From NCBI GenBank assembly GCA_027068365.1, contig JAMOTQ010000014.1, positions 1 through 24,000 on the forward strand: a stretch of 24,000 nt of DNA. The letters run 5' to 3'. Source of the DNA: Methanocaldococcus sp. (GTDB lineage Archaea > AGJL01 > Methanococci > Methanococcales > Methanocaldococcaceae). The translations under genes and the position numbers were made by a program. Below the pieces are notes generated by a model. That model did no database searches. It saw only the letters and a program-made list of their open reading frames with translations, and was not told the DNA's origin. Positions 3,432 to 22,541 of this stretch are shown here, in pieces; the first letter of the stretch is position 1; each line of letters starts with the position of its first letter.

Positions 3432-4415
3432 GTTAAAATCAGACCGTTTCGGTATGGAAACAAGATTTTAAAGCTTGCTGATTTTGGTAATGTTAGTTTG
3501 TTAAAATCAGACCGTTTCGGTATGGAAACCCATTCTTGCAGGTATAATTATTATTGTTTTATAAACATAAATGGTTAAAATCAGACCGTTTCGGTATGGA
3601 AACTGAATTTTTGTTGAATTCTACTTATTTAGCTTTCCAATGTGTTAAAATCAGACCGTTTCGGTATGGAAACATGCAAAAGAAACTTACGAAGCTTAAA
3701 AAACAATTAAAAAGTTAAAATCAGACCGTTTCGGTATGGAAACGCAAAGAAAGTAGCAAAGGAAAAAGAACTGGTAGAATATTCGTTAAAATCAGACCGT
3801 TTCGGTATGGAAACTGAATTTTTGTTGAATTCTACTTATTTAGCTTTCCAATGTGTTAAAATCAGACCGTTTCGGTATGGAAACTACTGTCTTTTGGTTA
3901 TCACCCCCGTTATTTGTTGTGTTAAAATCAGACCGTTTCGGTATGGAAACTTAACTTTTATATTGAATACTTTCACTTGGAACTGTTGAAATGTTAAAAT
4001 CAGACCGTTTCGGTATGGAAACTACTGTCTTTTGGTTATCACCCCCGTTATTTGTTGTGTTAAAATCAGACCGTTTCGGTATGGAAACTTAACTTTTATA
4101 TTGAATACTTTCACTTGGAACTGTTGAAATGTTAAAATCAGACCGTTTCGGTATGGAAACTTTCTTAAAAACACTTCTCCTTCAGTTCTACTACGTTAAA
4201 ATCAGACCGTTTCGGTATGGAAACGAACTTTTTATTAAGCTTATTAAGTCATCTAAGTCATTGTTAAAATCAGACCGTTTCGGTATGGAAATATCTATTC
4301 TTAAAATTTTTTTCATTTTTCATATCTCCGTTAAAATCAGACCGTTTCGGTATGGAAATTATGCAGATATTTTCACAATCCTCAACATTAAAAATCTTAA
4401 CGTTAAAATCAGACC
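3432..4415 (+). CRISPR. CRISPR array 1: 14 full 30-nt repeats, 14 spacers (11 unique), plus a 14-nt start of a 15th repeat
   Basis: Repeat GTTAAAATCAGACCGTTTCGGTATGGAAAC. Repeat starts: 3432, 3500, 3574, 3644, 3714, 3785, 3855, 3921, 3993, 4059, 4131, 4195, 4263, 4330, and partial at 4402. Spacers are 34-44 nt. Repeats 13-14 end in T instead of C. Orientation follows from the upstream leader, the ATGGAAAY 3' handle and the degenerate distal end. Confidence 0.97.
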
Positions 4416-4656
4416 TCTTGGGGGTTAAGGTTTAGACATTAATTGGGGCTGAAAGCCCCAACTTAATGGATGTCGGGTATACACACCATAGAGGGGCTAT
4501 GCCCCTCTATTGGGATACTCCCCGTAATTTACACCTCCGAGCGTAAGCGAGGAGGTGTTAGGTTTTGATGAAACTTTTTCTAAAAGTTTCATAACAATAG
4601 GGCGGAGCCCTATGGAATTCAGACCTCTTGGGGGTTAAAGTTTAGACATTAATTGG
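4416..4656 (+). repeat. Array-1 terminal GC-rich hairpin module with a nested 112-bp insertion and a partial second copy
   Basis: 4416-4482 matches 11340-11406 at 60 of 67 positions by hand alignment. 4595-4618 corresponds to 11407-11432. 4483-4594 is extra sequence absent from the array-2 copy. TCAGACC occurs at 4409-4415 and 4619-4625. 4626-4656 repeats 4416-4446 with one mismatch. Confidence 0.8.
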
Positions 4657-9880: not shown

Positions 9881-11455
9881 GTTAAAATCAGACCGTTTCG
9901 GTATGGAAATTATACAAACAAAACTAATTACTAAAAACGAGTGGCAGTTAAAATCAGACCGTTTCGGTATGGAAATAATGATATGAAGGATTTTATGAAT
10001 GATGCTTTGAGTCAAATGCCTGTTAAAATCAGACCGTTTCGGTATGGAAATTACGTGGTTTTTAAGTTAGGATAATTGACTAATAAGTTAAAATCAGACC
10101 GTTTCGGTATGGAAATCTTTATTTTTTTATCTTCTTTAAGTTATTTTTTATCGTGTTAAAATCAGACCGTTTCGGTATGGAAATTGGTTTTTATTAGTTG
10201 ATTGTATAGTTCTTTTGCATCATTAGTTAAAATCAGACCGTTTCGGTATGGAAATTTGGAACATAAAAAATTAGTTTTAGATGCTTATAAGGAGTTAAAA
10301 TCAGACAGTTTCGGTATGGAAATTTATAAAATAATATCTTTTTTAATCACAAACTATTTTGAGTGTTAAAATCAGACCGTTTCGGTATGGAAATACTCTA
10401 ATTTTTGGAATTTGATACAATTGCCTCCAGATGTTAAAATCAGACCGTTTCGGTATGGAAATACTCACCGAACTAAAAGACCAATACATAACAGAATTAG
10501 GTTAAAATCAGACCGTTTCGGTATGGAAATTTTATAATTACATAAAAACTATGCTCGATATTCCATTCGTTAAAATCAGACCGTTTCGGTATGGAAATAC
10601 ATTAGAAGAAATTTGTGGATGTCAAGTTTGGGATGTTAAAATCAGACCGTTTCGGTATGGAAATTACTTGATAATGCAAAATCAACCAACTCCATAAAAC
10701 CGTTAAAATCAGACCGTTTCGGTATGGAAATTTTTGTAAAATCTTAGCTAATTTATTTTTACACATTTCGTTAAAATCAGACCGTTTCGGTATGGAAATA
10801 TCGGCATAGAATCCACAATCAAAGCAATACATTAGCCTCGAGTTAAAATCAGACCGTTTCGGTATGGAAATAATTTTCAAAATGGATAGGAAATTTAATC
10901 ATAAAATTTGTTAAAATCAGACCGTTTCGGTATGGAAATAAAATTTCAGAAGTTTTAGAACAATATGCAACTATTGAAGAGTTAAAATCAGACCGTTTCG
11001 GTATGGAAATTACTGGAAGGTTTATACAATGATAGTTACAGTATTATTATCTTTGTTAAAATCAGACCGTTTCGGTATGGAAATTAGTTTGTGGCAGAAT
11101 ACTTTAAATCTTGCGTTAATTGGTTAAAATCAGACCGTTTCGGTATGGAAATATAAATATTGATTATTTAATAAGAAATAATCAAGAAAGTTAAAATCAG
11201 ACCGTTTCGGTATGGAAATCACAAAATACTAAGGAAGAATATGAGGTTTTGAATGGAGTTAAAATCAGACCGTTTCGGTATGGAAATTAGCTTCCAATAC
11301 TGCCTGGTGAGCATCTTTCTTTAATGTTAAAATCAGACCTCTCGGAGGTTAAAACTTAGACATTAATTGGGGATGAAAGCCCCAACTTAATGGATGTGGG
11401 GTATACCAATAGGGGGTCTCCCCCTATGGAATTCAGACCGTTTCGGTATGGAAAT
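9881..11455 (+). CRISPR. CRISPR array 2: 21 full repeats, 21 unique spacers, plus a 22nd repeat split by a 93-bp module
   Basis: Repeat GTTAAAATCAGACCGTTTCGGTATGGAAAT. Repeat starts: 9881, 9947, 10022, 10087, 10155, 10226, 10294, 10365, 10433, 10501, 10569, 10635, 10702, 10770, 10842, 10910, 10981, 11055, 11123, 11190, 11258, and 11326 (split). Spacers are 35-45 nt. Repeat 7 carries C to A at 10307. No spacer is shared with array 1. Confidence 0.97.
11340..11432 (+). repeat. Array-2 terminal GC-rich two-hairpin module inside the last repeat
   Basis: Located between the repeat 5' part (11326-11339) and TCAGACC plus the repeat 3' part (11433-11455). Stems at 11361-11392 (13 bp with one bulge) and 11409-11427 (8 bp). 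Confidence 0.8.
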
Positions 11456-12780: not shown

Positions 12781-12832
12781 ATTTGTGGTGATTAATATGG
12801 ATTTTGATATAACTATTATTGGCTATATTGCC
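12781..12832 (+). pseudogene. Duplicated 5' fragment (SD, ATG and 12 codons) of the SemiSWEET gene
   Basis: 52 nt that are near-identical to 12911-12962 (two single-nucleotide indels and three substitutions by eye). The ATG at 12797 opens a 24-codon frame that runs into the hairpin element and stops at TGA 12869-12871. Confidence 0.7.
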
Positions 12833-12910
12833 ATAGGGCTTCGCCCTATTGGGATACCCAGGATGCGTTGATTAGCTAAAAGCTAATCAACGTCTCTTAG
12901 TAAAATCTAT
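12833..12910 (+). repeat. GC-rich palindromic hairpin element (head plus 12-bp-stem hairpin plus TAGTAAAATCT tail)
   Basis: ATAGGGC-TTCG-GCCCTAT (12833-12849), TGGGATACC, CGTTGATTAGCT-AAA-AGCTAATCAACG (12866-12892), tail TCTCTTAGTAAAATCTAT. Same family as 17768-17820, 21890-21970 and 4488-4520. Confidence 0.75.
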
Positions 12911-12926
12911 ATTTGGGTGATTAATA

Positions 12927-13208
12927 ATGGATTTTGATATAACTATTATTGGCTACATTGCTGGAACTTTAACAACGTTTGCATCTCTCCCTCAATTAAT
13001 AAAGTCATTGAAAGAGAAGGATATGAGCAACATATCATTAGCTTTTGTTATAACATTCACAACTGGACTAACACTCTGGCTAATATATGGGATATTAAAG
13101 AATGATTACCCCATAATAGTATTTAATATTTTGTCTTTAATGTTTTGGATTCCAATAACTTATTTAAAGGTTAGGGAGGAGATTGTAAGGAGGAAGAAAA
13201 TTTTATGA
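12927..13208 (+). CDS. SemiSWEET / PQ-loop (MtN3 family) three-helix membrane transporter
   Basis: 93 aa with three hydrophobic helices and an LPQ motif in the first helix (TTFASLPQLIKSL). GGTGA lies 6 nt upstream. Confidence 0.72.
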   Translation: MDFDITIIGYIAGTLTTFASLPQLIKSLKEKDMSNISLAFVITFTTGLTLWLIYGILKNDYPIIVFNILSLMFWIPITYLKVREEIVRRKKIL

Positions 13209-17767: not shown

Positions 17768-17820
17768 CCATGGGGCTTCGCCTATTGGGATGCATTACGC
17801 TCAACCTTTTAGTAAAATCT
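17768..17820 (+). repeat. Short or degenerate member of the GC-rich hairpin element family
   Basis: CCATGGGGCTTCGCC-TATTGGGATGC...TTTTAGTAAAATCT shares its head and tail with 12831-12908. Starts 2 nt after the PAC2-family stop. Confidence 0.65.
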
Positions 17821-17910
17821 TGACCAAAATATGTATTTACATCCTAACGGAAGTAAATGCCTCTTAATTATAATTCGATACTGTTAAAACTTTCAAATTT
17901 TGGTGGTATT

Positions 17911-21695: not shown

Positions 21696-21889
21696 AGTTC
21701 CACGCAATATTTAAATATTCACATTAATTAGAAAAATTAGGAACAATTTAAACACTCTTACTGTTTAATTTGTTTGCCAATTATAAAAGAAAAATTTTGC
21801 AGTTAATTTTTTTTGTAGTTAGTTATTGCTATAATAATTAAAAATTAAAAAAAGCTCAAAATATCTGGTGCAAGGTCTGAGATTTAAAG

Positions 21890-21970
21890 CATAGGGCTTC
21901 GCCCTATTGCTATACCTCCAAAGGATGCATTGCCTCGCTAACGCTCGGCAATGCCTCTTCTAATTAGCTA
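21890..21970 (+). repeat. GC-rich hairpin element next to the tRNA-Leu 3' end
   Basis: ATAGGGC-TTCG-GCCCTAT (21890-21906), TGCTATACC, GCATTGCC-TCGCTAACGCTC-GGCAATGC (21926-21953), CTCTTCTAATTAGCTAT. Flanked by AAATATCTGGTGC at 21858-21870 and 21973-21985. Confidence 0.72.
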
Positions 21971-21979
21971 TCAAATATC

Positions 21980-22067
21980 TGGTGCGGGGGACGGGATTTG
22001 AACCCGCGAACCCCTACGGGACCAGACCCTCAATCTGGCGCCTTTGGCCAGGCTTGGCGACCCCCGC
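21980..22067 (-). tRNA. tRNA-Leu (anticodon GAG), CCA encoded
   Basis: The reverse complement reads GCGGGGG..GCCAAGCCTGGCCAAAGGCG-CCAGA-TTGAGGG-TCTGG-long variable arm-GCGGGTTCAAATCCCGT-CCCCCGC-A-CCA. A TTTATAAATA TATA box lies about 20 nt upstream on the same strand (22084-22093). Confidence 0.9.
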
Positions 22068-22253: not shown

Positions 22254-22364
22254 GCCGAGGTGGCTTAGCTGGTTATAGCGCCCGGCTCATACGGATATCC
22301 CAGCCCAACGGCTGGGTCCTGGGAAACCGGGAGGTCGAGGGTTCGAATCCCTCCCTCGGCACCA
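22254..22364 (+). tRNA. tRNA-Met (anticodon CAU, elongator type) with a 34-nt intron at the canonical 37/38 position, CCA encoded
   Basis: GCCGAGG acceptor pairing with CCTCGGC-A-CCA. Anticodon stem CCCGG/CCGGG, loop CU-CAU-A, then the intron 22292-22325, then A. T arm GAGGG-TTCGAAT-CCCTC. The intron holds a 7-bp hairpin CCCAGCC-CAAC-GGCTGGG. A CAU anticodon could alternatively be tRNA-Ile2. Confidence 0.85.
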
Positions 22365-22541
22365 TTTTATTCCCGGAGGTTTAAAATTTTTTGATGGAAC
22401 TTTTTCTAAAAGTATAGTTTCTTTGGAATCATTTTTTATTTTAGATATTATATTTATATATTTGGATGTTTAGATTGACTATTTTTAAATAACACTATTT
22501 TTAAAACATAAAATATGTCCAACAATTTTAGTGGTGAATTT

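Follow-up and report, generated by a model that had tools for sequence, protein, structure and literature searches.

Suyama, Lathe, and Bork are said to have described in FEBS Lett in 2005 a set of 141 palindromic elements of Methanocaldococcus jannaschii, MJRE1-3, which reportedly form three groups and total 14.3 kb. They are reportedly about 100 bp long on average and mostly extragenic, with a few copies inside open reading frames (ORFs), and MJRE2 is reported to form in-frame coding insertions. To our knowledge, these repeats have never been explained mechanistically since they were published in 2005. Here, we analyze a family of two-hairpin elements found in a stretch of 24,000 nucleotides (the window; positions 1 to 24,000 of contig JAMOTQ010000014.1, assembly GCA_027068365.1) from a draft Methanocaldococcus genome (G000; 1.38 Mb, 168 contigs, 31% G+C, 89% complete). 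The coding share of this genome is 88%, and the window contains two CRISPR arrays, tRNA-Sec, tRNA-Leu, and one intron-containing tRNA. An earlier note on the window, made from the sequence, had proposed a family of GC-rich hairpins and had left open whether they were MJRE elements. This link is very likely, with 39 copies of the head hairpin of the family in the genome that we take to be M. jannaschii DSM 2661 (G009). Compared with the reported description of MJRE, the elements are likewise short palindromic repeats of M. jannaschii and agree in size and palindromy.

Other described systems share some of these properties. REP, BIME, and REPIN elements are mobilized by RAYT, a Y1 HUH transposase, and leave no target duplication. 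They resemble the elements analyzed here in being short imperfect palindromes with covarying stems that form intergenic mosaics in both orientations and occur in tens to hundreds of copies, but here the duplications are long, and no Y1 transposase was found in either the source genome or M. jannaschii. IS1634 is the only prokaryotic precedent known to us for long target duplications of variable length. It differs as an autonomous DDE insertion sequence with inverted-repeat ends, whereas the ends here are hairpins and no DDE gene correlates with them. The long, variable-length direct repeats of IS1634 are those of Mycoplasma mycoides, according to the accessible parts of two papers (PMC2266710, PMC1798306). 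[quoted passage not shown] The elements here are, like MITEs, small, non-coding, non-autonomous, polymorphic between relatives, and accompanied by target duplications. However, their two ends are different hairpins, their duplications are variable at 25 to 64 bp, and no parent insertion sequence was found; with neither terminal inverted repeats of at least 10 to 15 bp nor duplications of 2 to 10 bp, they are not MITEs. They also do not belong to the palindrome-associated transposable elements (PATEs) derived from IS200/IS605, as they have no fixed target tetra- or pentanucleotide and their duplications are long. In geometry only, they recall the target-primed insertion of retroelements that lack long terminal repeats (non-LTR; long and short interspersed nuclear elements, LINE/SINE), with variable duplications, one precise and one ragged end, and a polarity of orientation relative to the two target nicks, but a search of 17 genomes of the genus turned up no reverse transcriptase.

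The integration geometry that we describe fits no described class. Our analysis indicates that the elements are probably non-autonomous mobile DNA repeats of Methanocaldococcus and close kin, very probably the MJRE elements, rather than RNA genes, and that they insert with long target duplications, by an integration that is probably asymmetric. In the accessible literature, including papers citing MJRE, we found nothing on 25- to 64-bp duplications, the two-hairpin architecture, polarity, precise loss, or copies at CRISPR ends, and the long duplications and the polarity thus appear undescribed.

Results

The simple element is a cassette of 60 to 80 nt with one A-type and one B-type hairpin (H-M1, H-M2, H-M3, H-M4, M2-M5, M3-M5, or M1-M5). 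The A-type hairpin, either a head (H) or an AT-rich palindrome (M5), marks a sharp element boundary, and B-type hairpins of several classes (M1 to M4) occupy the opposite end. The head, CCATAGGG-loop-CCCTATTGGKATAC, is present in six copies in the window and in ~41 non-overlapping copies in the 1.38-Mb genome, as found with an nhmmer profile built from 22 exact genomic copies. When the 80 nt upstream of each head were aligned with the 330 nt downstream, the best flank repeat had a median score of 21.5; for 1500 random sites, the mean was 9.8, with the 95th percentile at 13. The upstream copy of the repeat stopped 0 to 6 nt before the CCATAG of the head, and headless elements were likewise flanked by duplications. 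Clear duplications were detected at 31 loci, with lengths of 25 to 64 bp, a median of 40, and no mode at 30; by BLAST, one duplication extends to 78 bp. The two copies were often 80 to 95% identical, and several pairs were perfectly identical (C110, 34/34; C161, 36/36). Of these duplications, 27 of 31 extended over a few dozen bases at the start or the end of a gene, and tRNA 3' ends and CRISPR repeats also serve as insertion targets.

When the genome outside CRISPR arrays was scanned without bias for close direct repeats, 39 pairs were obtained, 25 of which contained modules of the family. Most of the other pairs, probably repeats within coding sequence, are separated by 170 to 414 bp and enclose DNA whose folding is no stronger than that of its flanks. 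No insert-free tandem duplication of 20 to 90 bp was found in the genome outside CRISPR arrays, indicating that the duplication is tied to the element. The same zero count rules out a host duplication process with occasional capture of an element.

Comparison with relatives showed that all well-preserved copies are insertions: the target is duplicated around them, and the corresponding site is empty in relatives. We rebuilt the empty sites of 26 loci and searched for them in five relatives, which yielded 66 contiguous empty sites with one target copy and 31 occupied sites with both copies. Base-level alignments confirmed clean insertions, such as that at the end of radA (C110; 34/34).

The duplications revealed a strict polarity. 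Writing each locus as X - L - [B ... A] - L' - Y, we asked which duplication copy was continuous with the gene body. This gene-bearing copy adjoined the B end in 20/20 informative loci of the source genome (p = 1.9e-6). From G009, 40 loci were fetched, 22 of which had clear duplications of 21 to 67 bp, and the gene-bearing copy again lay at the B end in all informative loci (10/10; p = 0.002). Because the polarity holds alike at gene starts and gene stops, the same element end faces both, and the element is thus oriented in opposite ways to transcription at starts and at stops, an observation that speaks against a simple explanation at the RNA level. In the empty sites, the position later joined to B was always in AT-rich, G-poor intergenic DNA, and the position later joined to A was inside the gene. 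A search for a target motif found none beyond AT-richness at the B junction. A symmetric staggered cut combined with selection for intact genes would give both orientations equally. With the duplicated flank always on the B side, AT-rich intergenic DNA receives the B junction, and the starts and stops of genes and the 3' ends of tRNAs are copied harmlessly.

Between the B hairpin and the duplication lie unique tails of 8 to 28 nt. In a genome search for 3' transduction, all junction tails were unique save for one resemblance, over 34/40 nt, to an unrelated gene, which so far lends transduction no support. The sequence concerned, C110:3144-3185, consists of the 19-nt unique tail behind radA and its neighbors and matches C116:1540-1577 inside an unrelated endonuclease III/GIY-YIG gene; the match may reflect templated filler or chance. 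At C161:13742-13769, the 28 nt between an H-M3 element and its duplication provide a new ribosome-binding site and ATG (AAAGGTGTGAATATTATG), and the ancestral start stays with the orphan copy.

Hairpin anatomy and module dynamics

Mapping ten seed modules over the whole genome identified ~65 module clusters outside CRISPR arrays, with the modules arranged in many different orders and orientations. Together with the ~41 heads, these bear out the earlier proposal of a modular, dispersed family of GC-rich hairpins. The head folds as a stem of 7 to 10 bp with a 3-nt loop (GGGC-TTC-GCCC), in place of the C(UUCG)G tetraloop that had been suggested, and its one bulged T gives it an orientation. M5 is the AT-rich palindrome TTTTGATGAAACTTTT-N3-AAAAGTTTC, also given as GAAACTTTT-N-AAAAGTTTC. 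Since the two ends of an element are an A hairpin and an unrelated B hairpin, there are no terminal inverted repeats.

The second hairpins that the earlier note had paired with its heads all exist, namely, a 12-bp stem within 12861-12899, ACACCTCC/GGAGGTGT at 4531-4558, and GCATTGCC/GGCAATGC within 21923-21959. They had been taken to be unrelated in sequence, but M1 and M2 have the same flanks (GGATGC...GCCTCTTA), and at their apex lies a common 12-nt motif, TCGCT(N)ACGCTC / GAGCG(N)AAGCGA. In its GAGCG(N)AAGCGA form, the motif folds as a GC-G(N)AA-GC mini-hairpin atop fully different stems, including ACACCTCC, GCATTGCC, GCACTGCC, GCACTACC, and GCATCACC. Similarly, what had appeared to be two distinct tails reduces to one module, as TAGTAAAATCT is all that is left of a decayed AACCTTTTAGTAAAAGGTT-type M5. 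Covariation in the variable second stem was then checked. Across 22 B hairpins of the apical-motif class, 99.4% of cells were paired, 7/8 pairs had changed on both sides, and 0/500 shuffles reached the observed value.

In longer copies, additional modules are nested within loops or between the hairpins. A few copies (C30:797, C32:28206, and C53:4861) have the apical motif in flipped orientation relative to stem and flanks, and between orthologous copies, a loop can become more stem. Orthologous sites can also differ in modules: the element at C29:11371 carries M4 in G000 and M1 in M. jannaschii, and an extra module lies inside M5 at C158. One H-M3 copy is located within a putative gene, an open frame of 357 aa (C15:5807-6880), and may be an in-frame coding insertion as reported for MJRE2.

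Element copies in the window

Heads in the window lie at 4486 (plus strand), 4615 (minus), 11429 (minus), 12831 (plus), 21890 (plus), and 17768 (plus; weak and degenerate). A search with the head pattern gave six matches on the two strands at three sites, compared with 0 in 100 shuffles, and chance therefore does not account for them. All four copies reported earlier were located where they had been placed.

The element at 12831-12910 (plus strand; nhmmer and fold) consists of head H (12831-12859; nhmmer E=2e-7 at 12831-12857), a B hairpin that has M1-type flanks and a stem of 12 bp (12861-12899), and the decayed M5 remnant TAGTAAAATCT (12898-12908). It is missing in five relatives, each of which has a single copy of the 50- to 52-bp target. 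By alignment and comparison with these relatives, the orphan copy (12781-12830) adjoins the A end and contains the downstream gene's ribosome-binding site and ATG together with its first 12 codons, and the gene-bearing copy (12911-12960) adjoins the B end and heads a 93-aa ORF (12927-13208).

An H + M1 element lies beside tRNA-Leu at 21890-21972 (plus strand; nhmmer and fold), with its head at 21890-21916 (E=7e-4 at 21890-21915) and its B hairpin at 21923-21959. G007 and G009 also have this element, and G015, G011, and G001 lack it. Its 31-bp duplication is of the tRNA-Leu 3' end (gene 21980-22067, minus strand). Comparison with relatives identified the functional copy at 21973-22003, adjoining the B end, and an orphan decayed copy at 21859-21889, adjoining the A end, which is better preserved in G007 and G009.

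The region highlighted by the earlier note, 4483-4594, is a 112-bp composite of H, B, and M5, head first, nested in an element at the end of CRISPR array 1. Its A-type head is the long-stem variant CCATAGAGGGGC-TAT-GCCCCTCTATTGGGATAC (4486-4518, plus strand; nhmmer E=3e-5 and fold). The head is followed by a B hairpin, M2, with its flanks (4526-4562, plus strand), which has an 8-bp stem, ACACCTCC/GGAGGTGT (4531-4558), supported by its fold and by the covariation of its class; its apical motif, GAGCGTAAGCGA, forms a GC-GTAA-GC mini-hairpin. The composite closes with an A-type M5, the AT-rich palindrome TTTTGATGAAACTTTTTCTAAAAGTTTCAT (4563-4592, plus strand; module mapping and fold). The outer element is an H-M3 element on the minus strand, with its B hairpin M3 (GACATCCATTAAGTTGGGGCTTTCAGCCCCAATTAATGTC on that strand) at 4435-4482 by module mapping and its head at 4595-4615 (nhmmer E=2e-4), which is split after CCCTATTG by the nested composite. 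Direct repeats of 38 to 41 bp bracket a 169-nt composite here; the left copy (4409-4446) scored 36 against a 99th percentile of 27 in the control, and the right copy (4619-4656) aligns with it. At array 2, an H-M3 element lies between the last two repeat-like units (11359-11429, minus strand; nhmmer E=1e-5). Thus, the terminal modules of both arrays contain a family member, as had been claimed. The sequence CCAATAGGG..CCCTATGG (4595-4615, 11401-11429) is present at both ends, but it proved by nhmmer to be the same head on the minus strand rather than a relative of it.

The "degenerate" last repeat of both window arrays (GTTAAAATCAGACCTCTYGGRGG..., 4402-4432 and 11326-11356) resembles a second repeat type, GTTAAAATCAGACCTCTCGGAGGATGGAAAT, better than it resembles a decayed copy of its own array repeat. 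This second type forms arrays of its own in the source genome (C105:229-685 and C133:21720-22392).

An old, decayed element lies at 17768-17866 (plus strand; profile and fold), with a degenerate head, a decayed M5 (CAACCTTTTAGTAAAATCTTGACC), and the hairpin GTATTTAC..GTAAATGCCTCTTA. Its head (17768-17791) is not significant by itself (nhmmer E=1.9), and no recognizable duplication was found around this element. Two relatives have intact heads at the matching intergenic site. There, G015 has H+M1, G009 a composite of five modules, and G007 an unrelated hairpin, and the site is empty in G011 and G001.

A solitary, slightly degenerate M5 (22389-22413, plus strand; module mapping) lies downstream of the intron-containing tRNA (22254-22361). 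This tRNA, with a 36-nt intron, was detected by Rfam and missed by ARAGORN.

Turnover and distribution

A tree from one 2.2-kb locus placed G007 as the sister of the source genome (support 100/100). G007 is nevertheless empty at three loci, C158:1895, C128:2255, and C29:11371, where G000, G009, and G001 have insertions with identical boundaries. No single tree can accommodate the presence patterns of the different loci together, implying either precise loss, for which the long repeats are the obvious route, or allele exchange between lineages. Independent insertions at one gene start were observed at C15:10434 and at C128:241, where the element is inverted in G007.

Our survey of distribution covered 40 genomes, all of the order Methanococcales. 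Eleven genomes of the genus contain 48, 39, 37, 33, 31, 28, 22, 21, 17, 15, and 13 heads, six others contain 0 to 5, and the sister family has about none. G009 has, besides its 39 heads, 12 M5 palindromes and 31 B-loop motifs. M5 is present in 11 copies in the headless genome G013 and also occurs in three further genera of the order, and the B-loop motif occurs in four of the five genera. These differing distributions, wider than that of the head, indicate that H, M5, and the B motif have separate histories and that the B apical motif is the oldest conserved part of the family.

Discussion

Long element-bound duplications, empty sites, and a one-sided flank rule together support the conclusion that the hairpins are mobile DNA. 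In the mechanism that we propose, integration would be asymmetric and anchored at one intergenic point, with 25 to 64 nt of the B-side flank re-copied beyond the A end. As our best guess, one element strand, its 5' end fixed at the A hairpin and its 3' end ragged past B, would be captured at an intergenic nick after 25 to 64 nt of strand displacement or through an equivalent pair of widely staggered cuts. We infer that the sharp A boundary and the ragged B boundary, with its 8- to 28-nt tails, fit a single-stranded intermediate whose 5' end is fixed at A. The long repeats would later permit precise loss by recombination, and palindrome-templated repair could keep stems perfect, flip loops, and swap modules.

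Several points weigh against this interpretation. Among the enzymes surveyed in 17 genomes (reverse transcriptase, Y1, DDE_Tnp_1, and Cas1), no mobilizing enzyme was identified. Some loci of G000 and M. jannaschii are orthologous, and the two polarity counts are thus not fully independent. The polarity could in principle stem from orientation-dependent selection rather than from the mechanism, and the 8- to 28-nt unique tails between B and the duplication are unexplained. No insertion was caught in the act; the freshest copies have duplications of 34/34 and 36/36, and the nearest available genome is only ~91% identical to the source. Finally, the very probable identity of the family with the published MJRE elements rests on its presence in M. 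jannaschii and on the reported features of MJRE.

The earlier note had taken the elements for structured RNAs. Structured non-coding RNA genes or cis-acting RNA modules, such as stabilizers of untranslated regions or protein-binding motifs, with dispersal as a secondary property, would fit the GC content of the elements (0.40 to 0.56 versus 0.27 to 0.34 in the flanks), their strong folding (z of -4.5 to -10), their covarying stems, and their apical loops of the GNRA/GNA type. B stems also contain 7 G-T versus 1 A-C pairs on one strand, and of the heads in tandem gene contexts, 15 are antisense and 6 sense, but both biases are weak (p about 0.07 each). As single-stranded DNA, the two strands of an element fold equally well (z for the two strands, -8.7/-10.0, -6.1/-6.8, and -4.5/-4.9). 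The GNRA-type loops that had been regarded as a hallmark of RNA belong to the GCGAAGC type of mini-hairpin, which is very stable in DNA as well as in RNA, and flipped loops and loop-to-stem changes are typical of DNA palindromes. An Rfam search of the window at gathering scores found only tRNAs and CRISPR repeats, and at E values up to 5, no credible match to any copy was obtained in the window and five further element loci. The suggested comparison with the Rfam Hgc families of Klein and Eddy gave no match to HgcC in the genome and one match to HgcG away from any element. Copies are gained and lost among close relatives, module content differs at the same site, and the same element end faces gene starts and gene stops, in opposite orientation to transcription. 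Against this background, an RNA function as the basis of the family is very unlikely. The HgcG match, at C164:5062-5195, is sub-threshold (49.5 bits versus a gathering score of 77; E=8.6e-13) and overlaps no element.

Other explanations accept DNA movement but differ in its agent. There may have been no dedicated transposition if the cassettes were filler caught during repair or recombination at out-of-register joints, the "duplication" being an overlap of two alleles. Duplication copies that are often 80 to 95% identical rather than identical, presence and absence that conflict with the tree, different modules at the same site between genomes, a junction tail that resembles an unrelated locus over 34/40 nt as templated filler would, and the lack of any correlating transposase are consistent with filler. 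Yet the A boundary is precise to 0 to 6 nt, the same 60- to 80-nt two-hairpin unit recurs at dozens of unrelated sites, the perfect duplications at C110 (34/34) and C161 (36/36) are as left by fresh in situ duplication, insert-free out-of-register joints number zero, and strict polarity needs a directional process, which makes filler unlikely. Insertion of cassettes as oversized spacers by Cas1-Cas2 or a Cas1-like integrase, with a duplication akin to the repeat duplication of spacer acquisition, could explain why members lie inside the terminal repeats of both window arrays and of other arrays and why an H-M1 element lies ~100 nt from cas1 in the source genome and M. jannaschii; spacer integration also duplicates a 30-bp repeat, which is inside the observed range. 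Our enzyme survey, made by Pfam family over the 17 genomes of the genus, found Cas1 (PF01867) in 15, and the only two without it (G002 and G003) have 0 to 1 heads. However, the correlation is weak, as G013 and G008 have Cas1 but only 0 to 2 heads. Moreover, duplications of 25 to 64 bp show no 30-bp ruler, targets have no common repeat-like or leader-like motif, and most copies lie far from arrays, so that we consider a role of Cas1 highly improbable.

Mobilization in trans of MITE- or PATE-like elements, by an IS4/IS1634-type DDE enzyme or by an IS200/IS605 Y1 enzyme, which recognizes hairpin ends, is very improbable. In its favor, IS1634 is cited for long direct repeats of variable length, DDE_Tnp_1 genes are present in the source genome, and ~10 copies of an IS200/IS605-like 300-nt element insert 3' of TGC there. 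DDE_Tnp_1 (PF01609) was found in 7/17 genomes but is uncorrelated with the elements and missing from G006, G016, G001, G012, G011, and G007, six genomes with 13 to 37 heads. The Y1 transposase (PF01797) occurs in only 3/17 genomes, with none in the source genome or G009; the element ends form no terminal inverted repeats, and Y1 transposition leaves no duplication. Reverse transcriptase (PF00078) was found in 0/17 genomes. The composite had no match in plasmid or phage records, and the head had no exact match in viral contigs.

Beyond the conclusion that the hairpins are probably mobile repeats, we tentatively raise the possibility that the two-hairpin cassettes are an undescribed kind of mobile DNA. 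Such DNA might move through a single-stranded hairpin intermediate whose 5' end is fixed at the A hairpin and be inserted asymmetrically at a nick in AT-rich intergenic DNA, with 25 to 64 nt of the flank on one defined side copied anew, by host replication or repair enzymes or an unrecognized integrase, without a reverse transcriptase or a Y1/DDE_Tnp_1 transposase. MITEs, REPs, and IS200/IS605 elements do not show directional integration of this sort, which would represent a new form of archaeal DNA movement. If this is true, the long duplication would make insertion beside genes harmless in a compact genome, and reversible. Directional integration would also explain how a genome with 88% coding sequence tolerates dozens of insertions, with gene ends being copied and not broken. 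Any mechanism would be constrained by the A+B minimal unit, the sharp A and ragged B ends, the element-bound duplications, the strict flank rule, and the lack of a reverse transcriptase and of any transposase family that tracks the elements. M. jannaschii now has a genetic system, and these proposals are thus testable. For annotation, the elements are confounders, as they give rise to pseudo starts of genes, pseudo ends of tRNAs, and altered ends of CRISPR arrays. They also look like the GC-rich islands on which the prediction of non-coding RNAs in AT-rich hyperthermophiles is based.

Additional observations

A separate 300-nt repeat (GTTTGAAACAG...GACCCCTCTTAG) is present in about ten copies in the source genome, outside the window (C39:9070-9400, C29:4553-4862, C134:1731, C72:3922, C18:5143, C6:5034, C22:996, C107:3116, and C160:3736). 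It has a TATA-like AT-rich start, followed by a GC-rich structured part of ~230 nt with GATGA/CTGA motifs, and has no Rfam match. The repeat always lies directly 3' of ..GC (often TGC) without a duplication, like IS200/IS605-derived elements, and twice lies inside the 3' arm of an M1 hairpin.

An H-M1 element lies ~100 nt from the start of cas1 in the source genome (C39:9009; cas1 at C39:8118-8918), and one occupies the corresponding place in G009 (343,834-344,748). A third CRISPR repeat type (GTTTAAGAAGAACAGTATTGTATGGAAAC) was found on C152, near a second cas1.

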